Shown here piece by piece: positions 3,393 to 60,550 of a stretch of DNA of 64,000 bases; the stretch's first letter is position 1, and the number at the start of each line of letters is the position of its first letter. This DNA is from Candidatus Omnitrophota bacterium (lineage in GTDB: Bacteria; Omnitrophota; Gorgyraeia; Zapsychrales; Fredricksoniimonadaceae). Made by a program: the position numbers and the translations under genes. The stretch is from assembly GCA_015233335.1 (NCBI GenBank), contig JADFXX010000004.1, positions 79,237 to 143,236 of the forward strand, written 5' to 3'. The notes under the pieces are model-generated. The model saw nothing but the letters and a program-made list of their open reading frames with translations, had not been told where the DNA came from and did no database searches.

Positions 3393-4937
3393 TTATAACC
3401 TTGCGCTGACGCCGATTTTCATACCCTCGACATCGACTTTAATAATTTTAACCTGGAGCTTATCGCCAGCTTTAAGTGCTGCGGCCTGAGTCTTTTCAAT
3501 TTCCGAAGAATAAACTAAAGCTTCGATGTCATCTTCCAATTTTACAAAAACTCCGAAATTAGAGTTCATGATGACAACAGCTGGAACAATGGCACCTACG
3601 GGAAATTTATCAGCTATGCTGTTCCAAGGATTAGCCTGTAGCTGCTTGAGTCCCAAAGTAATCTTTCGGGCTTCAGTTTCAACAGACAGGATGCTGACCT
3701 GTACTTCCTGCCCTTTTTGAACAACTTCCTGAGGATGGTTGATTTTTTTGGTCCAGGACATATCAGAGACATGGATCATGCCTTCGAGCCCGTTGCCTAA
3801 TTCGACGAAAGCACCGTAATCAGTAAACCCCCGGACAACACCTTTAACAATCGAACCGACACTAAATTTAGCGGCCGCATTGCTCCACGGATTTTCTTCT
3901 AACTGTTTCATGCTCAAGGAAATGCGCTTAGCATCTTTATCCACATTGATCACTTGAACCTCAATAACATCCCCTAATTTAAACATTTCCTGAGGGTTGA
4001 CCATTTTCTTCTGCCAAGTGATTTCGGAAGAATGCAGGAGGCCTTCAATGCCTTTGTCAATCTCAACAAAAACACCATACGGCATAATATTGACAACTTT
4101 ACCCTTAATCCGGGCACCAGGAGGGAATTTAACGACCGACTCATCCCAGGGGTTTGAGGTGATCTGTTTGAGCCCCAACGAAACTTTGGAATTGTCCTTA
4201 TCGAAGTCCAGAATCAAAACCTCAAGCTTCTGCCCTACAGAAACGATCTCTGAGGGATGATTAATGCGGCTCCAGCTCATATCTGTGATGTGCAAAAGAC
4301 CGTCCACTCCTCCTAGATCAATAAACGCCCCAAAATCGGTGATTCCTTTGACTGTGCCGCGACGTTTCTGTCCCTTTTTGAGCTCATTCCAAAGTTTTTC
4401 ACGAACTTCTTCCCTTTCCTTCTGTACCATTTCACGACGGGAAAGGATCAAATTGCGGCGCTGCTTGTTCATCTTGGCCACCACAAACTTGTAATTGTGG
4501 GCGGTAATGTCATGGTTAGACAAACCTTTGAAAGCTGACAAAGACATCGGTAAAAAAGCCTCGATACCGAAAACATCAACAATATACCCACCCTTGACCG
4601 CACGCATGATCCGGCCTTCGAGGATATCCCCTTCATTAATGTCATCAGAAATCTTCTGCCAGCCTTTCAGCCGTTCGGCCTTGGCATAGGACAGAATCAG
4701 ACGGCCATTGTCATCCTCAATATTTTCAATCAAAACCTCAAGCTGCTGCCCTATGGCCAATTCGGTGGGGTTACGAAATTCTTCTATCGGGACGAATCCT
4801 TCAGACTTAAAACCAATGTCGACGATAACCTCCTTAGGGGTGATTGCCGCGATGGTTCCTTTTGACACCTCGCCTTCCTTAATATCCTTCAAGGTGCTAG
4901 CGTACAACTCTTCCATTACTGATCTATCTGCATCCAT
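3393..4937 (-). CDS. rpsA: 30S ribosomal protein S1
   Basis: 514 aa made of repeated S1 OB-fold modules (GxVxxIxxxGxFVxL patterns recur about 6 times). Confidence 0.92.
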   Translation of the reverse strand: MDADRSVMEELYASTLKDIKEGEVSKGTIAAITPKEVIVDIGFKSEGFVPIEEFRNPTELAIGQQLEVLIENIEDDNGRLILSYAKAERLKGWQKISDDINEGDILEGRIMRAVKGGYIVDVFGIEAFLPMSLSAFKGLSNHDITAHNYKFVVAKMNKQRRNLILSRREMVQKEREEVREKLWNELKKGQKRRGTVKGITDFGAFIDLGGVDGLLHITDMSWSRINHPSEIVSVGQKLEVLILDFDKDNSKVSLGLKQITSNPWDESVVKFPPGARIKGKVVNIMPYGVFVEIDKGIEGLLHSSEITWQKKMVNPQEMFKLGDVIEVQVINVDKDAKRISLSMKQLEENPWSNAAAKFSVGSIVKGVVRGFTDYGAFVELGNGLEGMIHVSDMSWTKKINHPQEVVQKGQEVQVSILSVETEARKITLGLKQLQANPWNSIADKFPVGAIVPAVVIMNSNFGVFVKLEDDIEALVYSSEIEKTQAAALKAGDKLQVKIIKVDVEGMKIGVSARL

Positions 4938-5077
4938 GGATTTAAAACCTCTTTCTTTACAGGAATTCTTTGCACGAATAACTCATCCCGCCAGGCGGGA
5001 TACATCGACAAAGTCTGGTAATTATGCCAAAAAAGTCTTAAATGTCAAGAAATTCTTTGTCTGGTCAATGGAATTTT

Positions 5078-5668
5078 TTAAAACGGCTTTGGGGCCAAGG
5101 CGTAAATTTTATCTAAGATACGCCCGGATGCTTCTTCATAACTGGAAGCATCACTGACGGAGAATGGCTCTCCGAATGTGGCAAACACACGTCCCCTTTT
5201 AAAGAATTTAGCGCCTCGAGGCAAGACATGATCGGTCCCCTGGACAAAAACAGGCACGACCGAAACCCCGGATTTCATGGCTAAAAAACCAGCCCCCGGT
5301 TGAGCTCGGGAAGGCTGATTGCCGATACGCCGGGTACCTTCCACAAAGATCAAAATCACCCGGCCGTTTTTCAAACGCTTGAGAGCTTCTTTCATGGCGC
5401 CTAAATCCGCCTCACCCCTTTTGACCGGAAAAGCCCCGAGGCGGGTTAAGACGAACCCCAAGGCCCCTTTAAATAATTCGATCTTGGCCATAAAATTAAT
5501 CCGTCGCACGGAACAAATGCCTAAAACCACCGGATCCAGGTAACTGGCGTGATTACTTGCAAGAATAAAAGCGCCCTTTCGAGGAATGTTACTAGTCTGA
5601 TAGGTACTAAAAGGAAAAAATAACCAGCTCACAACTTTGGTCAAAAAATAAACAATGTAATAAATCAT
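5078..5668 (-). CDS. plsC: 1-acyl-sn-glycerol-3-phosphate acyltransferase family
   Basis: 196 aa. It has the acyltransferase motif NHASYLDP (NHxxxxD), FVEGTR and an N-terminal TM segment. Confidence 0.8.
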   Translation of the reverse strand: MIYYIVYFLTKVVSWLFFPFSTYQTSNIPRKGAFILASNHASYLDPVVLGICSVRRINFMAKIELFKGALGFVLTRLGAFPVKRGEADLGAMKEALKRLKNGRVILIFVEGTRRIGNQPSRAQPGAGFLAMKSGVSVVPVFVQGTDHVLPRGAKFFKRGRVFATFGEPFSVSDASSYEEASGRILDKIYALAPKPF

Positions 5669-5688
5669 AGTTTAAATAACGATCGTTT

Positions 5689-6375
5689 CTAGATTAAATT
5701 AAACCGATAACCGATCCCCGGCTCATTAATAATACGTTTAGGTTGAGCTGGGTTGTCTTCGATTTTCTGACGCAAATGGTTTAAATACACCCTTGCTGAA
5801 TTTGATTTCTCTTCATTATCCGTCCCCCACACTTCCCTTAAAATTTGTCGCATCGTTAATACCCGCCCTGCGTTCTTGATCAATGAAGTCAATAAACCAT
5901 ACTCAATGGCAGTTAACTTAAGCGCTTTACCGTTCAGAGCGACCATACGGGTATTAAACTCAATACGTAACCCGGCATTATTAAAAATTTCATTCACGAT
6001 CCCCTGTGTCGTTTTTCGTCTCAAAACCGCAGAAAGCCTAGCTGTCAGTTCAGTGGCGGAAAATGGTTTTGTGACATAATCATCCGCTCCGCTTTCTAAA
6101 CATTTCACTTTTATTTCTTCCTGGCCTCGCACGGAAACCATAATGACCGCAACATCGCTAAATTCTCTAATACGCAAGAGCACGTCAAAGCCTTCCATAT
6201 CCGGCAAGCCCATATCTAGAAGCACCGCATGGGGTTTTTTATAAACAAGTTCCGCTAATCCTTTTTCACCGCTGGCAGCAAATACAACTTCATACCCGGC
6301 ATGATTGAGAATAACCCCCAACATTTTCTGGATTTGCGGTTCGTCATCGATAACAAGAACAATCCCCTTGGCCAT
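5689..6375 (-). CDS. kdpE: OmpR-family response regulator KdpE
   Basis: 228 aa with a receiver domain (VLVIDDEP...LLDMGLPDMEG) and a winged-helix output (GIGYRF). It lies immediately downstream of kdpD. Confidence 0.85.
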   Translation of the reverse strand: MAKGIVLVIDDEPQIQKMLGVILNHAGYEVVFAASGEKGLAELVYKKPHAVLLDMGLPDMEGFDVLLRIREFSDVAVIMVSVRGQEEIKVKCLESGADDYVTKPFSATELTARLSAVLRRKTTQGIVNEIFNNAGLRIEFNTRMVALNGKALKLTAIEYGLLTSLIKNAGRVLTMRQILREVWGTDNEEKSNSARVYLNHLRQKIEDNPAQPKRIINEPGIGYRFNLI

Positions 6376-6376
6376 C

Positions 6377-9019
6377 TTATTCTTTTTCTACCATTGGTAA
6401 AGTGATCGTCACCATGAACCCCTTGGGAGACAAGTTCTCCGCTTCCACATCGCCATCATTCAACTGAACAAAGCGACGGGCTATGGAAAGCCCTAGACCT
6501 AAACCGCCTTTTTTTGTTTTTGCTCCCCGATAAAATTTATCAAAAATCTTAGTCAAAACTTCTTTAGGGATGCCTTCCCCCTCATCAATGACACTGATTC
6601 TGATCTTTTGATCCATGATACGCACTTGAACATCAATATCCCGGCCTTCAGGGCCGTGCACGAGAGCGTTATGGATGATATTCTTCAATGCCTGCGTAAT
6701 CATATAAAAATCAACATTCACATACAAAGGCCCTTGAGGGCAATCCAGCAAAATGCGCTTTTCATCCCCTTGTGTGGCTGCCTGTTTGAGGGCATGGGCA
6801 ATGATATCCTTGACCTCACACCAGGCAAAATTAGGTCTTAAATTACCCGTATCCAATTTAGTCAAATCCAACACTGCATCGACCCCGCTTGTCAAACGCA
6901 GGCAGGCCAAACGACATTCTTCAAGAAGGTCCATTGCGTCCTGAGGCCACTGATGGTATAAGACCAAAGCATCCAAATAACCGGAAATAATCGTCAAGGG
7001 GGTCTTTAGTTCATGAGATAAATTATCGAGTAAAGCGCTTTGCAAATTTTGTGTATCTTCCTTCATCTTAGCTTCCCGCGAAATCTTAAGCAGCTGATCC
7101 TTTTCTAGCATCACCGTCATAAGGGCTGTAAATGATTCTAATAGTGTCCTTTGGGCGAAATCCAGAGGTTTATCGTTCAAGAGTTTAATCACCAATACTG
7201 CCCTCACCTGTCCCGTTGACATTAAGGGCAGGTACATTAAAGGCTGCTGTGCTAAAGTATCGGAAAAACGACCGGCCGCTTTCTTATTAGCCACAACCCA
7301 CTGAACTAAGCCTTTCTGATTCTCAGTCATTTCTACATAATCCCCCAAGGGACTGGCAAAAAGGGGTTGTTCATTCTCATCAATCATCAACACGCTGCTA
7401 TTACACTGGCAGAGCAAATTAATTTGTCCGGTAGCGACCCTCATAGCTTGGGCGACATCAGTGCTAAGAGCTAGCGCACGGGTCAACTCATACAAAGATT
7501 CAGAGCGCTGTCTTTGCTTTTGTTCGATCTCTTTTTGACGGCGCAGCTTGGAGGTGACCAGTCCCATCATTAAGGCCGTCACAAAAAACATGCCCAAAAT
7601 ACCAAGGTCGTAACTACTTCTAAGATTAAAAGTGTATTTAGGAGGAATGAACAAAAAATCCCATGCAACACCGCTTAAGGCCGCCAGCATTAATGCCGCG
7701 CTTCTGCCTAAAAAAACTCCGCTCAAAACGACTGTCAGCAAATACATGAGACCCAAAGTTTGATAGCCCGTCAACGGTTCTAAAAATATATTCACTATGG
7801 TCGCAATAGCAAACATCAAGAAGCTCAATCCATATTCACGCGGCTTAATGTGAGGAAGGAAATCTTTTGGTTTGCGTGGAAAATTCTTTTCTGACGATGA
7901 TATACGCACCATGTGGACATCGATCTGTCCGCTAAGATTAACCAGCCTTTCCGCCATAGGTGTGATCCCCAGCCACCGCTGCCAATTTGTCTCAACAGAT
8001 TTCCCGATAATAATTTGGGTAACATTTTCGTTATTAGCCACGTCAATGATCACTTGAGCAAGATCATCCCCTACCTGGTGGATGATCTCAGCCCCCAATT
8101 GACGGGCCAGGCTCAAATTCCTCATCAAACGGTCTTTATGTTCTTCGTTGAGGGGTTGAGAGCCTTCGACATGCAGGGCAATCCAGGAAGCGTCCAGCAT
8201 CCCTGCCCAACGACGGGTCATGCGGATGAGCGACTCCGAGAAAGGAGTGATCCCTACCGCGACTAAAATACGCTCTCCGCTTTTGGTGGGTCCTGATATA
8301 CCGCGGGCCGACATAAGCGAACGCAAATTCCGGTTAACATGTGCGGTGGTCAAGCGCAAGGCCATTTCCCGCAGGGCCGTTAGATTCTCAGTTTTAAAAA
8401 AATTATTTGTAGCGGCGCGCGCCTGGTCCGGGACATACACCTTGCCTTCCGCCAGACGTTGATGCAAAGCTTGCGGGGATAGATCGACCAAGGTGATTTC
8501 AGAAGCTTCGTCGAGGATGGTATCCGGGACTGTTTCTCCGACGATCACTCGGGTGACCGCAAGAATATCTTCCCGTCGACTGTCGACATGCTGGACATTC
8601 AAGGTGGTAAAAACATCAATGTCCGCAGAAAGGATTTCTAAGACATCCTGATAGCGTTTAGGATGCCGGCTGCCGGAGGCATTGGTATGAGCGAGCTCGT
8701 CGACCAAAACTAATTGAGGACGACGTTTGAGGATTTCATCAATATCCATTTCCTCAAGAGTAATGCCACGGTAATCCACTTTTTTAAGGGGAATTTGCTC
8801 TAACCCTTCGAGAAGGGCCTGGGTTTCAGCACGGCCATGCGTGCAGACCACCCCTACCAATACTCTAAACCCTTCAGCCTGACGCTGGCGCGCCTCCTGA
8901 AGCATAGCGTAAGTCTTACCGACACCGGGACACATGCCAAAAAATATTTTCAGCTTGCCGCGGTGGCTATCTTCAGCTTTAACCCTTGCTAAGATTGCGT
9001 CCGGATCAGGTCGTTCCAT
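6377..9019 (-). CDS. kdpD: Sensor histidine kinase KdpD
   Basis: 880 aa. The N-terminal KdpD domain carries a P-loop (GMCPGVGKTY). This is followed by a Usp-like region, 4 TM helices, a GAF-like region, an H-box (SHELKTPLT) and an ATPase domain. Confidence 0.92.
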   Translation of the reverse strand: MERPDPDAILARVKAEDSHRGKLKIFFGMCPGVGKTYAMLQEARQRQAEGFRVLVGVVCTHGRAETQALLEGLEQIPLKKVDYRGITLEEMDIDEILKRRPQLVLVDELAHTNASGSRHPKRYQDVLEILSADIDVFTTLNVQHVDSRREDILAVTRVIVGETVPDTILDEASEITLVDLSPQALHQRLAEGKVYVPDQARAATNNFFKTENLTALREMALRLTTAHVNRNLRSLMSARGISGPTKSGERILVAVGITPFSESLIRMTRRWAGMLDASWIALHVEGSQPLNEEHKDRLMRNLSLARQLGAEIIHQVGDDLAQVIIDVANNENVTQIIIGKSVETNWQRWLGITPMAERLVNLSGQIDVHMVRISSSEKNFPRKPKDFLPHIKPREYGLSFLMFAIATIVNIFLEPLTGYQTLGLMYLLTVVLSGVFLGRSAALMLAALSGVAWDFLFIPPKYTFNLRSSYDLGILGMFFVTALMMGLVTSKLRRQKEIEQKQRQRSESLYELTRALALSTDVAQAMRVATGQINLLCQCNSSVLMIDENEQPLFASPLGDYVEMTENQKGLVQWVVANKKAAGRFSDTLAQQPLMYLPLMSTGQVRAVLVIKLLNDKPLDFAQRTLLESFTALMTVMLEKDQLLKISREAKMKEDTQNLQSALLDNLSHELKTPLTIISGYLDALVLYHQWPQDAMDLLEECRLACLRLTSGVDAVLDLTKLDTGNLRPNFAWCEVKDIIAHALKQAATQGDEKRILLDCPQGPLYVNVDFYMITQALKNIIHNALVHGPEGRDIDVQVRIMDQKIRISVIDEGEGIPKEVLTKIFDKFYRGAKTKKGGLGLGLSIARRFVQLNDGDVEAENLSPKGFMVTITLPMVEKE

Positions 9020-53914: not shown

Positions 53915-55637
53915 CAGCGTTATCCCCCGAGCTATGTCTACGAGTTCTCAGGCCGGGCTTAGTCACCGGCGAAAACTGAAAAGTTTTCACATATTCATCA
54001 TCATCGCTGTCCACATCCCCCTCGTTAAGGGAAATCAATGACAAAGGGACCGGCAGCCCTTGCAGGACGACATTACGGGCTAGGATATATTTTTCAGCAA
54101 AATGCCCATCCGTTTCTGCCGCCTTCCCTAGGCAATAAAGGGCGTTTGTAAAATCCCGCTTTAAGAAATAGACAGAACTCAAACCATTCCAAGCGCTGCT
54201 ATTAAATGGATTAAGGGCCAAGGCACGCTGATAAAACTGTTGGGAAAGTCCATAATCTTTCTGACGAAACAAATTATCAGCTAAAGAGTAATAAGTTTCA
54301 GAGACATCCGGTTCTTTTAAATTTAACGGGTTTATAAAAGATGCCAGAACACAGGCTAAGAACACCCCGACCACTTTCACCAATTTGGATTTATCCCGTG
54401 TTTTGACGGCTTCATATAAAGTAGAAACAAAAAAAGCGGCATAGAACATCACAAAAGGAATAATAGGCACAAGATAACGCGTTTTAGCCGGAAAAAATAT
54501 AGACATCACAGACGATAATAAAAAAAGGTTCAGCAGTTGATAGCGCTCTCTTAATTTCCAAGCCGCGAAAAAACCCGAAATAGCAAAAACAAATATGACT
54601 GAGGTGGACAAAAATTGCAGTGAGGTCGGCACGACAAAGAAATTCCTGAAGTAAACATCCTCAGAGCGCAAAAATTCACGGCCGGTCAAAAAAGACCAGA
54701 CCTTCCCAAAAATAAGCCTAGCCCAGGAAAACGGATGTTCCTCTATTTTCTCAAACGTCTTTTGGAAGTAAAAATTATTGACCTGGGATTCTGTCAAAGC
54801 ATTGTTGTGCAGTTCCCGGTAAGGCATGGTAATAAAATTTTGCCACAGACGGCCTCCCTCAACAAAAATATTCGACCCATAAGAATCAGGGTCATTCCCC
54901 AGATACAAATTAGAAGCAACTTGGGAGCGCAGCGTCCACGAGCCTGAAATTTCGTGATTTCGAAATAAAACCGGAGCTAAAACAAGCGCCACCGTCAGTA
55001 TAAAAGCCCCATAATGGCACAATGCGCGTTTGTGGCTCTGATCTTGCCTCCAAATCCATAATAGGATAAGCCCGGCAAAAAGGCTAAGATCCGGACGGCA
55101 CAGTAATGATGCCCCAAACAAAAATCCTCCTAAAAGATATTTCTTCAACGAATCTTTAGCTACGATCAGATCATAGATCAAGGCGATATTGATCGTCATG
55201 GCCAGGCATTCGCTAAACAAAAAGACCTGTGTATAGATCATAAACCAATAGAACGTCATGAACCCCGCACAGACAAGAGCAGCAAGAGGATTCGCAAGTC
55301 TTAAGGTCAACAAATACATCAAACATGCGCTCAAAGCCCCCAAAAGACATTGAACAATCACCACCGCGTTTATGTGAAACCCGAAAATTTGGTAAATGAC
55401 CGCCATAAAATAAGGATACAGAGGGGTATGATGAAAGGGTATATGGCCCGCAAGCCCGGGCCAAAACCAATCGTGCCGCTTGATCCAGAATGCCAGAAAA
55501 TTAAATTCTTGGGGGTCACTGCTGGGCAGGTGAAAAACAAGATCATTTTGAAGTCTGGCAAGAAACCAAAGCCGCAGGCCCAGCGCCGTAACAAAAATGA
55601 TCAGGAGAGCAGCTTTATGTTTTTTTAACATATGCAC
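53886..55637 (-). CDS. Glycosyltransferase family 39 (ArnT/PMT-like) membrane protein with C-terminal TPR-like region
   Basis: 583 aa. The N-terminal segment (about aa 1-440) is polytopic. The C-terminal repeats are TPR-like (YYSLADNLFRQKDYGLSQQFYQRALALNP...). Confidence 0.7.
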   Translation of the reverse strand: MHMLKKHKAALLIIFVTALGLRLWFLARLQNDLVFHLPSSDPQEFNFLAFWIKRHDWFWPGLAGHIPFHHTPLYPYFMAVIYQIFGFHINAVVIVQCLLGALSACLMYLLTLRLANPLAALVCAGFMTFYWFMIYTQVFLFSECLAMTINIALIYDLIVAKDSLKKYLLGGFLFGASLLCRPDLSLFAGLILLWIWRQDQSHKRALCHYGAFILTVALVLAPVLFRNHEISGSWTLRSQVASNLYLGNDPDSYGSNIFVEGGRLWQNFITMPYRELHNNALTESQVNNFYFQKTFEKIEEHPFSWARLIFGKVWSFLTGREFLRSEDVYFRNFFVVPTSLQFLSTSVIFVFAISGFFAAWKLRERYQLLNLFLLSSVMSIFFPAKTRYLVPIIPFVMFYAAFFVSTLYEAVKTRDKSKLVKVVGVFLACVLASFINPLNLKEPDVSETYYSLADNLFRQKDYGLSQQFYQRALALNPFNSSAWNGLSSVYFLKRDFTNALYCLGKAAETDGHFAEKYILARNVVLQGLPVPLSLISLNEGDVDSDDDEYVKTFQFSPVTKPGLRTRRHSSGDNAAIARTRPIG

Positions 55638-55641
55638 CGGG

Positions 55642-56241
55642 TCATTTTTTGGATGGTACGCCGCCTTTAATCTTTTTTAACAGCCACGTCATATTCTCAC
55701 CCAAGACCTTCATTGTCTGCAGCCCTTCTTCATCTTGGGCCACATCCCCAACCTCCCGGCCAAAAGCAAAGTTCCAATAGTTTGAACCAACCACGATCAT
55801 CTCAGAAATAGTAAAAAAATGATTGATCGTGTCAAAAGCATGGATGGCGCCGCCGCGCCTCTGAGCTATGACCGCGGCACCTACCTTACGTTTTAAAAAA
55901 CTGCCATTGGCTCTGGAAACAAGGCAAGTACGGTCGATCAGCGCTTTCATTTCAGAGGAAACATCTGTCACATAAACCGGCGAACCGAGAATGATCCCGT
56001 CCGCTGTGATCATTTGATCGATACACTCATTGACGATATCCTCTTCAAAAGAGCAGTGATTGTTCTTTTTGCTGGAACATTTATAACAAGCCCTGCAGCC
56101 GCGGACAGTATGCCCTGCCAGTTGAACTTGCTGGCACTCGATACCCGCTTGCCTTAAAGGCTCAAAGACCTTATCAATTAAAATAGAAGTATTCCCGTTT
56201 TTTCTCGCACTTCCATTAATGGCAACAACTTTCATAACCAT
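55642..56241 (-). CDS. Flavodoxin-fold NADPH-dependent FMN reductase / iron-sulfur flavoprotein-like
   Basis: 199 aa. The N-terminus is VVAINGSARKNGNTS. A Cys cluster, CRACYKC...C, follows. Confidence 0.78.
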   Translation of the reverse strand: MVMKVVAINGSARKNGNTSILIDKVFEPLRQAGIECQQVQLAGHTVRGCRACYKCSSKKNNHCSFEEDIVNECIDQMITADGIILGSPVYVTDVSSEMKALIDRTCLVSRANGSFLKRKVGAAVIAQRRGGAIHAFDTINHFFTISEMIVVGSNYWNFAFGREVGDVAQDEEGLQTMKVLGENMTWLLKKIKGGVPSKK

Positions 56242-56303
56242 GCCCTTTCTTTAAATTATTTAAAACCGTCCGCTAAGCTATTTCTTACAGCGGCCTGATT
56301 ATC

Positions 56304-56726
56304 TCATATTTTTAACCAGACCTCAATTCTCTGTTTGATCTCTTCTCTGACAGCCCTTGTCTTGACAATCTTCTCTTGCCGCGTCCCCTCAAATTTTGAT
56401 GGGTCAGCAAAACCCCAATGAAGCCTTTTAGCAATGCCGGGAAATGTGGGGCAACGCTCTGCGCTGGTTTCATCACAAACCGTAATAACATAATTATAGA
56501 TCTTGCCGCTCTTCATACAGTCAACGACCGCCCGTGTCTTTTTATCGGAAATATCGATCCCTATTTCTTTAAGGACCTCGACCACGATCGGATTCAATTT
56601 GCCCGGTTCAATACCAGCACTTTCAACCTCAAACTGATCCCCGGCTAACTGTCGCAACAATTCCTCAGCCATCTGACTGCGGGCTGAGTTATGAATACAA
56701 ACGAATAGGACCCTCTGCTTTGCCAT
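56304..56726 (-). CDS. arsC: Arsenate reductase, LMW-PTPase (thioredoxin-coupled) type
   Basis: 140 aa. The CX5R P-loop is VCIHNSARS. The two downstream Cys (VCDE, ERCP) match the Bacillus-type Cys10/82/89 triad. Confidence 0.9.
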   Translation of the reverse strand: MAKQRVLFVCIHNSARSQMAEELLRQLAGDQFEVESAGIEPGKLNPIVVEVLKEIGIDISDKKTRAVVDCMKSGKIYNYVITVCDETSAERCPTFPGIAKRLHWGFADPSKFEGTRQEKIVKTRAVREEIKQRIEVWLKI

Positions 56727-56729
56727 AAA

Positions 56730-57773
56730 TCACCACCGGATGTTTTTCTCAAGCGAACGGGCCACATTGACCAGACCGATCATGACCGGGACCTCGATGA
56801 GCGGGCCAATGACCGCGGCAAAAGCCACCCCTGAGTTGATCCCAAAAACAGCAATAGCGACCGCTATGGCCAATTCAAAGTTATTGCTTGCCGCCGTAAA
56901 CGATAAGGTGACCGTACGGCCGTAGTCAGCCCCTGCCTTGCGGCTCATAAAAAAAGAGATAAAAAACATCGCTGTGAAATAGAGCAATAAAGGGATCGCT
57001 ATGCGGACAACATCACCCGGGATCTTTACGATAAATTCACCCTTGAGTGAAAACATAACAAATATAGTAAAAAGCAGCGCAACTAAAGTGACGGGGCTGA
57101 TCCGGGGAATAAAGACCTTCTCATACCATTCCTTTCCCTTGAACCGCAAAAGAACAAACCTTGAGACCATTCCAGCAAAAAACGGGATACCAAGATAAAT
57201 GAACACACTCTTGGCTATCTGCATAATTGTTACATTCACCACAAAGCCCTTAAGACCAAACCACACGGGCAAAATCGTGATAAAGACCCAGGCATAGAGT
57301 GAAAAGAACAGCACTTGAAAGATCGCATTGAATGCCACAAGGCCGGCACAATATTCCCTGTCTCCGTCTGCCAGATCATTCCAGACAATCACCATCGCAA
57401 TACATCGTGCCAATCCGATCATAATAAGCCCGATCATATATTCAGGATCCCCGCGTAAAAAAACAATGGCCAATATAAACATCAATATGGGCCCGATTAT
57501 CCAGTTCTGAACAAGTGACAAAATAAGGATCTTATGGTCCTTAAAAACATCGTGCAATTCTTCATATTTAACTTTAGCCAAAGGAGGATACATCATCAGG
57601 ATAAGACCTGCGGCGATCGGCACATTGATTGTCCCTGACTGAAACTGATTCCAAAATCCAACGACTCCGGGAATAAAGAATCCGACACCCACTCCAAGGG
57701 CCATTGCCAGAAAGATCCATAATGTTAAGAATTGATCCAAAAAAGAAAGTTTCCTGCCTGTTAGTGCTGCCAT
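56730..57773 (-). CDS. acr3: Arsenite efflux permease, ACR3 family
   Basis: About 347 aa from the ATG at 57773, with 10 TM helices. [20 protein letters not shown] and [13 protein letters not shown] are ACR3-like. Confidence 0.9.
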
Positions 57774-57774
57774 T

Positions 57775-58074
57775 TTATTCACCCTTAACGACCTTACAAC
57801 AACCACCTTCGATTTTTAATGTATTGATTTCAACTAAACACTGGGCAATTTTCCTTCTAGCTGATGAAATAATCCTTGATACAGTAGAGCGGTGAACGTG
57901 CATGTGCCGGGCTGTTTTGATCTGAGATAAGCCCTCATAGTCTAAAAGCCTTACAGCTTCAAATTCATCCAAAGTCAAAACAACAGCCCTCCTGAGAGAA
58001 TTGGGAGAATGCTGTGGCTTAAAAAGCCTTTCTATCGGGCTACATTGAACCCAGCGGGTTTTCTTTGGTCTCAT
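57775..58074 (-). CDS. DUF134 (UPF0251) putative DNA-binding protein with a C-terminal Cys-Cys extension
   Basis: 99 aa. [13 protein letters not shown]...FKP...[21 protein letters not shown]...[24 protein letters not shown]...KIEGG matches the DUF134 pattern and is followed by CCKVVKGE. This is the first gene of the ars operon. Confidence 0.75.
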
Positions 58075-58088
58075 TTCAATACCCTATT

Positions 58089-58104
58089 ATGCACATATGT
58101 GCAT
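58089..58104. promoter_or_regulatory. Perfect 16-bp palindrome ATGCACATATGTGCAT, candidate operator
   Basis: Read directly from the sequence. It overlaps the -10 hexamer and the predicted transcription start of the ars promoter. I saw it only once in the window. Confidence 0.5.
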
Positions 58105-58130
58105 TATAAGAATAAAAAAAAATTTGTCAA
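58103..58130 (-). promoter_or_regulatory. Near-consensus sigma-70 promoter of the DUF134-acr3-arsC operon
   Basis: The minus strand reads TTGACA (58130-58125), a 16-nt spacer, then TATAAT (58108-58103). Confidence 0.6.
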
Positions 58131-58233
58131 TTTAAAAGGATAGCCTGACCGACACTTATGCGTCCTCGCTGCTTAACGATGCGCCCCCGGCATTAACCTA
58201 GCCCGGGGGCGAAACATAATGAGCGTATGGATT

Positions 58234-58893
58234 CTATTGACCTGCTTTTGCGCTCATCGCCTCCTGAACAAACTCAGTATAATCCCTGTAACACTTTTGA
58301 TAAAAAGGCTGCGATTTTAAGCCTGCCCGCCATTTTTTAAGCGATGGAAACCGGTCTATGCTAATTTCAGCTAATTCACAAGGGTCAAGCACACTGAGCA
58401 AATTCATATCCGCAAGACTAAACTCCCTGCCGGCCAGATAAGCATTTGCGAACAACTGTTTATCTAAAACGGGGAAATATTTATCGAGAAACTCAAGCCC
58501 GACGCGCAGGGACTCGGGATCAACCTTTTGTCCTGTCATAGGGGCAAACACACGGTTATAAAGGACACGGCCCATAGCATTGGCCACATGGACTGCCACA
58601 TAATCTGTCCAGGCATCAATGATGGCCTTCTTTTTGGCATCCTGGGGATAGATCGATGAATTATTGATCGTCGCTAAATACCGGTTAATGGAGCAGCTTT
58701 CAAATAATTTAAATCCGTCTATGTCAATAGCCGGAATTTTACCCGTAGGGGAAATAGTTAAAAATTCCTGTGTCCGAGTTTCATTTGCCATCGGATTAGT
58801 CTGTTCCCAATCGTACTTCAAGTTTAAATAATTAAGACAATACCTCACCTTGCTAACACTTGACGAAATCCCGCTTCCATATAATTTAATCAT
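58234..58893 (-). CDS. Glutathione S-transferase family protein
   Basis: 219 aa. The N-terminal thioredoxin-like part is ISPTGKIPAIDIDGFKLFESCSINRYL. The C-terminal domain is helical. Confidence 0.85.
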   Translation of the reverse strand: MIKLYGSGISSSVSKVRYCLNYLNLKYDWEQTNPMANETRTQEFLTISPTGKIPAIDIDGFKLFESCSINRYLATINNSSIYPQDAKKKAIIDAWTDYVAVHVANAMGRVLYNRVFAPMTGQKVDPESLRVGLEFLDKYFPVLDKQLFANAYLAGREFSLADMNLLSVLDPCELAEISIDRFPSLKKWRAGLKSQPFYQKCYRDYTEFVQEAMSAKAGQ

Positions 58894-58965
58894 AACCCAC
58901 TCCTTATTTTTTTAATCTTTCTTGGCGAAATCAAACATCCCTTGACTCATGCTTCTTTATACATG

Positions 58966-58994
58966 AAAAAAATCATGACGGATAGGTCATGATT
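58966..58994 (-). terminator. Rho-independent terminator after the UbiA-fusion gene
   Basis: Minus strand: AATCATGAC, loop CTATCC, GTCATGATT, then TTTTT (7 T in total counting the last two stem bases). Confidence 0.7.
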
Positions 58995-59026
58995 CCTGTT
59001 TTTACTGATTTTTATCTACTATTCCT

Positions 59027-60550
59027 TCACTGCAAGTTAAACCAATACCTGATAAAAAGCTTTACGATCAAAAAAATGATGCTTAGAAGATATACAATAA
59101 ATATAGGCCTTTCAGAATAGTTCTTTCTATTGATCAAATAAAAAATAATGCCCCCTGATCCCAGCATCACAAATAACAGGTTGAGCTCTCTGACCAAAAA
59201 ATATGTCAAAGCATAGGATATTAAAAAACTCGACCCGATGATGATCTTGCTCTTTTTGAGGCCTAAAAGGGTAGGAAGAGTTTTGATACCGGCGTTTTTA
59301 TCCCCCAGATAATCCTTGATATCAATAAAATTAATGGCGGCGGTAAAGCAAACCAAATAGAAGAAAACAATGATCTTGGGGACCGCAACCATAACATCTC
59401 CTGCGGGAAGAGAGAACCCCAGTTCAAACAATAACAACGAATTTAATGATATGACCATCTTCGAAAAAAATGGAATTCTTTTTAACCGGAAAGGAGGCGA
59501 AGAATATAAAAAATAATTGATCATCCAAAGCAGAATAATAAAGAAGCATGTATACCCGACGGCACTCGCATAAACCAGCGCTAAAAGAAAAAAGAGCCAG
59601 GACAGACGGCTATAATGATCACTGGGGATAGTTTTTAATACTGTCGGCCTTCCTGTGTTTGATATCCTGTCAATATCGTAGTCCTCGATATTATTGACCA
59701 TAACAGAAAATAGCCATGCAAAAATAACAGCCGGGGGTATAAAAATCCAAAAGAAATTCAACTCCAGGGCTTGGACGCCGGAATTAAACGTAAAGACAAG
59801 CCCCAGAATAACCATTAACAGAAAATGAATGATCCGAAGAGGCCTTGAATCTTTCCAGATTTCAACGAAGTATTTTTTATTATAAAGATAAAATACGCCC
59901 ATACTTAAAGGCAGCATTAACAATACATAGAACCTGACGATCACGGCGTTCGCATAGGAAAAAGAGATCCCCAAAACATTAAAAAAAGCTTTCATACAAA
60001 ACGGCATGGCAATATAAATGAAGATATTGACATAAATGAAAAAAGCAAAAAAGACCGAGCGCAGGACTTTCTTCGTTTTAAGATAAAAATAAATGTAAGA
60101 CATAAAAATAACCAGCGCGATTTCAATGCGCTGCCCCGGAGTGCACCCTCCTTGTCCGTCGAAGGGCCCAAAGAAAAGAAAAAACCTCTGCAGCATATGG
60201 TCGTCTTCCCCGGGCATAAAGTAATAGACACCGAATCCCTGGCCGGAACTGATCAGGAAGTCTGCGATCGGGACAAGGCATAAAACTATAAAGCAGGGCA
60301 AAACAACCCTGGCAATTTTGTCAATAGGCTCCCTTGTGGCAAAATAAAAAATGATGACCAGCGACATCGCTAAGCATATATAGGATAGCGAATAATGAAT
60401 ATAGGCCTCTAAAGGAATTGCGCTTCTGGTAGAAAACAGTTCCAGATAACTTCTTAAAGTGATGGCACCGATAAACGTGAGAATAACATGACGAAATGGC
60501 GTTTGGGGATTTTCTTGATGCTGAATAATATGAAGGAAAAATTTTAGCAT
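59027..60550 (-). CDS. UbiA-superfamily prenyltransferase domain fused to an N-terminal polytopic domain of unknown function
   Basis: 507 aa. The C-terminal half carries both Asp-rich UbiA motifs (NNIEDYDIDR and DIKDYLGDKNAG). The N-terminal 240 aa or so are hydrophobic, with no motif I recognise. Confidence 0.7.
   Translation of the reverse strand: MLKFFLHIIQHQENPQTPFRHVILTFIGAITLRSYLELFSTRSAIPLEAYIHYSLSYICLAMSLVIIFYFATREPIDKIARVVLPCFIVLCLVPIADFLISSGQGFGVYYFMPGEDDHMLQRFFLFFGPFDGQGGCTPGQRIEIALVIFMSYIYFYLKTKKVLRSVFFAFFIYVNIFIYIAMPFCMKAFFNVLGISFSYANAVIVRFYVLLMLPLSMGVFYLYNKKYFVEIWKDSRPLRIIHFLLMVILGLVFTFNSGVQALELNFFWIFIPPAVIFAWLFSVMVNNIEDYDIDRISNTGRPTVLKTIPSDHYSRLSWLFFLLALVYASAVGYTCFFIILLWMINYFLYSSPPFRLKRIPFFSKMVISLNSLLLFELGFSLPAGDVMVAVPKIIVFFYLVCFTAAINFIDIKDYLGDKNAGIKTLPTLLGLKKSKIIIGSSFLISYALTYFLVRELNLLFVMLGSGGIIFYLINRKNYSERPIFIVYLLSIIFLIVKLFIRYWFNLQ

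Follow-up and report, generated by a model that had tools for sequence, protein, structure and literature searches.

A DUF134 protein with a vicinal cysteine pair as the predicted arsenite-responsive repressor of an Omnitrophota ars operon

ArsR is the usual regulator of arsenic-resistance (ars) operons. Within the ArsR/SmtB family the As(III) site is formed by the C-terminal Cys95, Cys96 and Cys102 in AfArsR and by Cys15 and Cys16 together with Cys55 of the other subunit in CgArsR (PMC11868830), and a disorder-to-order transition has been reported for AfArsR (PMC11212059). Outside that family, MarR_ars (AdMarR_ars of Achromobacter deleyi As-55) is a repressor responsive to As(III) and Sb(III) through Cys36, Cys37 and Cys157 (bioRxiv 10.1101/2021.08.12.456183). 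Here we describe an ars operon from a 64,000-nt stretch of a Candidatus Omnitrophota bacterium genome (contig JADFXX010000004.1, positions 79,237 to 143,236; this whole stretch is called the window hereafter), headed by a protein of 99 amino acids (aa) that belongs to the DUF134/UPF0251 family. We propose that this protein is a dedicated, autoregulated and dimeric repressor of the operon in the place of ArsR, released from DNA by As(III) held on three thiolates, a reading to which we assign a probability of roughly 0.68. The familiar logic of a thiolate-switch repressor would then be found on a third scaffold, unrelated to the two known ones, ArsR and MarR_ars, the As(III) switch itself being predicted from sequence comparison.

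With the ArsR/SmtB repressors (R773 ArsR, AfArsR, CgArsR and ArArsR) the DUF134 regulator shares a length of about 100 aa, the position of its gene as the first of the operon, a palindromic operator at the promoter, a putative three-cysteine sensor with a close or vicinal pair and a flexible sensory region. Unlike them, it belongs to an unrelated family and, as modelled, has an unrelated fold, in which a helix-turn-helix (HTH) of three helices is accompanied by two strands and no winged helix is formed; its cysteines are carried by the two terminal arms and not by the DNA-binding core. MarR_ars is likewise a non-ArsR scaffold turned As(III) repressor with a vicinal cysteine pair and a distant cysteine, but it is a winged-helix protein of about 160 aa with another operator and comes from Proteobacteria rather than Omnitrophota. 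When set against sigma-70 and SorC, the regulator has neither sigma regions 2 and 3 nor the SorC sugar-binding domain and stands alone with its arms. The MRPxK..R..V arm, the DE(F/Y)EA(I/V)RL helix, the SR.T recognition helix and the IEGG strand are common to it and the DUF134 family at large, whose other clades differ in having longer, Cys-rich or NifX-like ends, the clade used as control below being paired with a NifX-like protein. No function for DUF134/UPF0251/PF02001/COG1342 and no arsenic link were found in Pfam, NCBIfam or the full-text literature, and a literature search for Omnitrophota together with arsenic returned nothing relevant.

Operon, promoter and regulator in the window

The elements of the operon, in the direction of its transcription, are as follows.

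58125..58130, minus strand: -35 hexamer TTGACA, half of a 12/12 sigma-70 match
58103..58108, minus strand: -10 hexamer TATAAT, its last 4 nt shared with the 20-bp operator
58087..58106, strandless: putative operator TAATGCACATATGTGCATAA, a 20-bp inverted repeat with one asymmetric pair
57775..58074, minus strand: regulator gene, encoding the 99-aa DUF134/UPF0251 protein (Pfam PF02001, 74.7 bits)
58042..58044, minus strand: Cys11 codon TGT in the N-terminal arm, proposed third As(III) ligand
57850..57894, minus strand: recognition helix, residues 61-75, aligned with the helix that reads DNA in DeoR and sigma region 4
57796..57801, minus strand: codons TGT TGT of Cys92-Cys93, the vicinal pair that immediately follows Gly90-Gly91
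56730..57773, minus strand: acr3, arsenite efflux permease of 347 aa from the ATG at 57773 (TIGR00832, Pfam SBF)
56304..56726, minus strand: arsC, encoding a 140-aa arsenate reductase of the low-molecular-weight phosphatase type, probably thioredoxin-coupled (Pfam LMWPc)

A first-pass annotation of this DNA, made from its letters and open reading frames (ORFs), had pointed to a near-consensus promoter on the minus strand and to a perfect 16-bp palindrome lying over its -10 hexamer and predicted +1, and both observations proved correct. The arrangement TTGACA-16 nt-TATAAT (58130-58103) is the sole 12/12 sigma-70 promoter match within 55400-59100, and the palindrome ATGCACATATGTGCAT (58089-58104) is the perfect core of the 20-bp repeat TAATGCACATATGTGCATAA, which overlaps the -10 hexamer by 4 nt, takes in the predicted +1 and stops 12 nt short of the ATG at 58074. 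With two mismatches tolerated, ATGCACATATGTGCAT has this single match in the 64-kb window (chance expectation 0.07) and the window holds no further operator copies. The tight gene spacing noted at first pass is also as reported, 1 nt separating the TAA stop of the regulator from the ACR3 ATG at 57773 and 3 nt separating the ACR3 TGA stop from the arsC ATG at 56726. As expected of an As(III)-responsive repressor, the regulator is the first co-oriented gene of an ars operon and has a dyad operator over its own promoter. Its cargo is clearly assigned in the case of ACR3, which scores 455 bits against the TIGR00832 equivalog (cut-off 282.8). ArsC has its best NCBIfam match in arsC_pI258_fam (TIGR02691), at 121.4 bits under the cut-off of 174.3, and carries a CIHNSARS loop (C10-X5-R16, CX5R type) along with Cys84 and Cys92.

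The regulator matches Pfam DUF134 (PF02001) well above the cut-off of 27 bits, with residues 2-92 falling on positions 6-94 of the 98 in the model. The family assignment made at first pass therefore stands; the description of CCKVVKGE as an extra tail does not, since the Pfam model reaches residue 92 and the clade as a whole is short. What is distinctive is the Cys-Cys at the two positions right after GG. The NCBIfam equivalog PRK04217 is matched at 69.7 bits, below its cut-off of 115, and other Pfam matches, to sigma-70 region 4 and further HTH models, are weak; the MarR model reaches 18.2 bits (cut-off 24.6) over residues 33-69 only, so that no MarR domain is assigned. An identical protein is encoded in a Candidatus Omnitrophica metagenome-assembled genome (MAG). 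In the wider family, 3,228 clusters at 50% identity match the regulator at E<=0.001. Members are usually 120-180 aa long with Cys-rich tails, and the ars clade, at 95-117 aa, is among the family's shortest: nearly all of the 120 closest homologues (64-80% identity, 95-117 aa) have Cys11, the HTH and a KIEGGCC end.

The protein consists of a sigma-70-region-4-like HTH core (residues 31-89), preceded by a basic N-terminal arm and followed by a short C-terminal tail. In the AlphaFold2 (AF2) model the core has a predicted local distance difference test (pLDDT) score above 90 and runs as a strand, three helices and a strand, one strand preceding the HTH in the sequence and the other following it; helix 62-82 contains most of the recognition helix, and the arms (residues 1-30 and 90-99) are of low confidence (pLDDT around 50). 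The best structural and sequence matches, over residues 35-82, are sigma-70 region 4 and the N-terminal HTH of SorC/DeoR. Foldseek alignments span 40-55 residues at a root-mean-square deviation of 0.5-0.9 A with E-values of only 0.06-0.6, and the DeoR DNA-binding domain is matched at E = 2e-4 over residues 38-75. Among the top 50 Foldseek matches in the PDB are sigma region 4, the HTHs of DeoR, SorC and LsrR and one archaeal factor, with no ArsR/SmtB entry, and the model is not a winged helix. No solved structure of any DUF134 protein was found in the PDB.

The first-pass statement that the window lacks an ArsR/SmtB-like gene holds for both kinds of search made here. Neither HTH_5 (PF01022) nor HTH_20 (PF12840) matches the regulator in Pfam at E<=0.01, ten small ORFs of the window carry no ArsR/SmtB-type Pfam domain, and phmmer queries with three hand-entered sequences, of ArsR, SmtB and CadC, returned nothing at E<=1 from the window ORFs and the 160 loci described below. 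Pfam-annotated contigs with related DUF134 loci show no gene of the HTH_5 or HTH_20 type up to 7 kb away. A hidden ArsR was accordingly dropped as a candidate for the window and the related loci, as far as Pfam and phmmer detect one.

Arsenic cargo, cysteines and operators in related loci

As far as comparative sequence data can establish them, the linkage to ars genes, the conservation of the cysteines, the conservation and placement of the operator and its match to the recognition helix are established for the clade to which the regulator belongs. In a species-genome collection (one genome per species), 392 stretches encode a relative; the loci analysed are the best 80 of these, nearly all from Omnitrophota MAGs, the labels Vampirovibrionales and 'PVC group' each occurring once. 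As control we took 80 metagenome loci (L081-L160, 423 kb) from a DUF134 clade without the Cys-Cys pair (CC), gathered with a 10-sequence alignment.

The enrichment beside ars genes that an arsenic regulator should display is pronounced. An ars gene is present at 76 of the 80 CC-clade loci compared with 4 of the 80 control loci (Fisher p = 5e-35), and two of these four are weak methyltransferase matches. It is adjacent to the regulator, within 150 nt downstream, in 73 of the 80, and three of the four CC-clade loci that have no ars match possess less than 800 bp of downstream sequence. The regulator (R) forms the 5' end of a co-oriented and variable arsenic cargo, in which the ArsP_1 permease is present at 61 of the 80 loci, the MTH895/ArsE thioredoxin at 50, ArsF at 47, ArsG at 45, ACR3 at 43, ArsM at 26, ArsC at 20 and an aquaporin at 5. 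The ArsP_1 permease is the first gene after the regulator in 60 of them and R-arsP-arsM-arsE-arsF-arsG-acr3 is the commonest order; arsM and a terminal arsC are optional in the arsP-arsE-arsF-arsG-acr3 type, as is arsC after acr3. Compact orders also occur, namely R-arsC-acr3, R-arsC-aquaporin and R-acr3-arsC, the last being that of the window. Other contigs for which Pfam annotation had been precomputed show DUF134-LMWPc-SBF, DUF134-LMWPc-MIP and DUF134-ArsP_1-Thioredoxin_3. At a DUF134-ACR3 locus that had looked like an exception, an ACR3 profile identified the two unannotated downstream genes as halves of one ACR3 gene, interrupted by a run of N. Four DUF134-headed arsenic loci (e.g., L057 1606-2496) have a CDF-family cation efflux gene downstream on the same strand, a hint that some of these operons also handle divalent metals.

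The cysteines were counted in 209 unique members of the ars clade. Cys93 is present in all 209, Cys92 in 208 and Cys11 in 204, and the five members without Cys11 all keep Cys17; Cys17 and Cys22 occur in addition in many members. By conservation there are thus three cysteines able to form an S3 site, and we propose as third ligand Cys11 or, where it is missing, Cys17 or Cys22, a choice made from the alignment. Of the ligands suggested at first pass, the CC pair and Cys11 are retained, while Cys79 (in AQCLVE), which had been named as an alternative, is found in only 2 of 209 members and was rejected.

The conservation of the CC tail in ars-linked members was likewise borne out, but not its restriction to them. 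In a broad-family alignment of 151 sequences (150 representatives plus the query), 15 have CC after GG; nine carriers and the query belong to the ars clade and six to a Negativicutes clade, in which the pair varies, with GGAC and GGRC as further forms, and no ars genes lie nearby. GG-CC is therefore refuted as an exclusive marker of ars linkage, and the dipeptide alone is not diagnostic. To judge from the alignments, the mark of the ars clade is the combination of an MRPKKTRW(V/I)KC arm, an (H/S)R(S/P)T helix and a short IEGGCC end.

Palindromes were also sought upstream of the homologues, as proposed at first pass, and the result is in favour of the operator. The 20-bp inverted repeat TTATG[C/A]ACATATGT[G/T]CATAA precedes the regulator in 79 of the 80 loci at a fixed offset from the -10 hexamer, beginning 2 nt past it or overlapping it by 4 nt, with 7-22 nt between its end and the start codon; a TTGACA-like -35 element with a spacer of 16-18 nt stands in the same relative place in 58 related loci. 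One base is kept in at least 70 of the 80 operators at 18 of the 20 positions, the central ATAT in 70-76 of 80. The main variable position changes symmetrically, with A/T in 52 operators, C/G in 21 and mixed half-sites in 7, and it tracks the recognition helix. All 21 GCAC-type (ATGCAC) operators go with Ser63, mostly in an HRSTV helix, and 51 of the 52 GAAC-type (ATGAAC) operators with Pro63 in an SRPTF helix; SRSTF intermediates have GCAC or mixed half-sites. Such covariation of operator base 6 (C or A) with helix residue 63 (Ser or Pro) is what direct readout by the DUF134 regulator predicts. No extra operator copies were found in the 750 kb of the 80 loci, i.e., no wider regulon is revealed.

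Proposed mechanism and competing explanations

We infer that a dimer of the regulator would bind the 20-bp repeat TAATGCACATATGTGCATAA through its sigma-70-region-4-like HTH and, sitting over the -10 hexamer and +1, would block RNA polymerase; it is the operator position that speaks for repression rather than activation. As(III), to which the cargo and the cysteine pattern point as the ligand, would be held by Cys92, Cys93 and Cys11, either within one chain or across the dimer. Its binding may order the flexible arms or tie them together and so release the DNA, upon which regulator, ACR3 and ArsC would be transcribed as one message. The first-pass idea of DUF134 as an arsenite-responsive repressor is in this way favoured by linkage, cysteines and operator, all sequence evidence, with its set of ligands amended by the removal of Cys79.

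A number of observations weigh against the proposed As(III)-responsive repressor. The helix-operator match largely follows two subclades and so reflects few independent events. One clade member with the CC tail and an intact operator (L014) has no ars gene within 6.3 kb downstream. L018 (5417-6303) is the sole locus of the 80 without a full operator, only the half-site GTGCATAA being left; there the upstream gene ends 30 nt before the regulator ORF, a distance at which the operon may be read through from upstream. Negativicutes members with GGCC lie beside radical-SAM/SPASM genes on a mobile element or are orphans. The AF2 arms are of low confidence, so that a meeting of Cys11 with Cys92 and Cys93, be it within the monomer or across the dimer, is not visible in the model. 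Many DUF134 proteins have Cys-rich tails or NifX-like fusions, which suggest zinc or iron-sulfur (Fe-S) centres, and hence the cysteines could hold a cofactor instead of arsenic. Lastly, the first cargo in most loci (arsP, arsEFG) is linked to organoarsenicals, so the ligand could be methylarsenite, MAs(III). The last two points each lead to an explanation of its own.

According to the first, which we regard as unlikely, the protein is a palindrome-binding autoregulator that does not sense arsenic directly; its cysteines would hold a structural zinc or an Fe-S cluster, and induction would come from thiol or redox stress, from cluster damage, or not take place at all. Such a regulator would fit a broad family in which an N-arm cysteine is conserved (Cys7 in the control clade), zinc-ribbon-like Cys-rich tails and NifX-like fusions and partners recur, GG-CC is found outside ars contexts and the palindromic operator is not confined to the ars clade. 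However, a vicinal cysteine pair with a distant cysteine, specific to one clade, is the known S3 signature of As(III) sites (PMC11868830), and the cargo is variable yet almost always specific for arsenic, as expected of a sensor matched to its ligand. A resistance operon repressed constitutively would also be useless.

The second explanation, which we likewise judge improbable, has the regulator respond mainly to trivalent organoarsenicals (methylarsenite or reduced aromatic arsenicals), with Cys92-Cys93 alone as a two-coordinate site, as in SpArsR. It draws on the ArsP_1 permease that comes first in 60 of the 80 loci, with homologues of ArsE, ArsF and ArsG usually behind it and ArsM often among them, on the near-strict invariance that only the CC pair displays (Cys93 209/209, Cys92 208/209) and on the sufficiency of two cysteines for MAs(III) (PMC11868830). 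Against this, a third cysteine (C11, or C17/C22) is always present, and the cargo of the window's operon and of those closest to it is limited to acr3, arsC or an aquaporin, whose products handle inorganic arsenic. The two ligand assignments are not exclusive either, since As(III)-responsive ArsRs usually respond to MAs(III) too.

That the palindrome is instead an RNA or DNA hairpin (for example, a 5' stem-loop or attenuator in the mRNA), with DUF134 acting elsewhere or as an activator or sigma-like factor, is very improbable: symmetric C-G to A-T changes would keep the pairing and the fold does resemble sigma-70 region 4, but the -10 hexamer abuts or overlaps the left arm, so that a transcript starting about 7 nt downstream is without it, the control-clade repeat lies in an untranscribed -35/-10 spacer, the central ATAT is conserved though needless in a loop, half-sites are mixed at seven loci, no structure is predicted for the leader RNA (z = +1.1) and it has no Rfam match, the variable base tracks the recognition helix, and activation cannot be reconciled with an operator that covers +1. 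An RNA hairpin or riboswitch was rejected as the explanation for the palindrome on three of these grounds, namely promoter geometry, the leader predicted to be unstructured and the lack of an Rfam match.

Surroundings of the operon and the wider DUF134 family

Directly upstream of the ars promoter and on the same strand lies a glutathione S-transferase (GST) gene (58234-58893), and an 8-bp GC hairpin without a U-tract, GCCCCCGG...CCGGGGGC (58183-58210), stands between the two. Two GST homologues are also found downstream of the ars genes at locus L016. On the other side, 62 nt downstream of arsC, is a gene resembling flavin mononucleotide (FMN) reductases and iron-sulfur flavoproteins (55642-56241), with a CRACYKCSSKKNNHC motif; its assignment as ArsH is unsupported, as its only NCBIfam matches are weak ones to SsuE and WrbA, and it is not kept beside the operon in related loci. 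Farther away (59027-60550) the window encodes a 507-aa UbiA-family prenyltransferase whose first ~245 residues form an extra multi-pass membrane region without a Pfam match. At locus L014 the products of the next genes (4884-6430) are a secreted protein of 80 aa, a Cys-rich, ferredoxin-like one of 72 aa and a MazG-like protein.

Palindromes at the promoter are not peculiar to the ars clade. CATATG-centred palindromes lie at most 100 nt upstream of control-clade DUF134 genes in 40 of 71 loci, with 2 elsewhere in the remaining 378 kb of the control loci; examples of the sequence are TTATGAGCATATGCTCATAA, TTATGAACATATGTTCATAA and ATTGGCATATGCCAAT, and examples of the sites L092 61-76, L089 2661-2676 and L090 1365-1380. 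They are located in the -35/-10 spacer, and their variants track the helix variants SRPTFSRI, SR(P/Q)TFGRI and SRQTFGNI. In the Negativicutes clade a TGACATATGTCA palindrome stands directly after the -10 hexamer of a single promoter. That the palindrome follows the regulator and not the cargo is strong indirect evidence for it being the DUF134 binding site and for autoregulation being widespread in the family. Judging from these upstream sequences in two other clades, autoregulation at a shared kind of operator appears to be general among DUF134 proteins.

The neighbourhoods of these clades are of another kind. A NifX-like protein is the typical neighbour in the control clade, where a NifX/NifB-like protein of ~143 aa with an MKIAV..GHFG motif is encoded on the same strand as DUF134 in 27 of 80 loci; at L134 (2411-2842) its gene starts ~150 nt downstream of the DUF134 gene, and some family members are fused to a NifX-like domain (PF02579). 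The Negativicutes promoter with TGACATATGTCA belongs to locus L161, at which a GGCC DUF134 gene heads a radical-SAM/SAM-synthetase/SPASM set (5001-8353) adjoining an integrase, a MobA/MobL relaxase and a resolvase. Possibly, DUF134 here controls a cassette for peptide maturation that is carried by a mobile element.

Tentatively, and a little short of even odds in our estimate, the whole DUF134/UPF0251 family would consist of one-component autoregulated repressors that recognise a CATATG-centred dyad (TTATG-NN-CATATG-NN-CATAA) and carry clade-specific cysteine sensors on their arms. These may be the Cys-Cys pair for arsenicals, zinc-ribbon-like tails in other clades and NifX-like modules for metal clusters. 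Should this hold, the ars clade of Omnitrophota would be the first DUF134 member with an assignable ligand. The CATATG-centred palindromes offer an entry point to the regulons and ligands of the other clades. A very small protein with a defined 20-bp operator and orthogonal helix-operator pairs (HRSTV/GCAC and SRPTF/GAAC) would also make an attractive part for arsenic biosensors.

If the proposed repressor is real, it would give a first function to PF02001, a large family still uncharacterised in Pfam and NCBIfam, and would mean that three-thiolate sensing of arsenic evolved on a third unrelated DNA-binding scaffold. Omnitrophota, a phylum without cultured members whose cells are mostly ultra-small, are common in groundwater and sediments, and the DUF134 repressor would explain how their ars operons are controlled.

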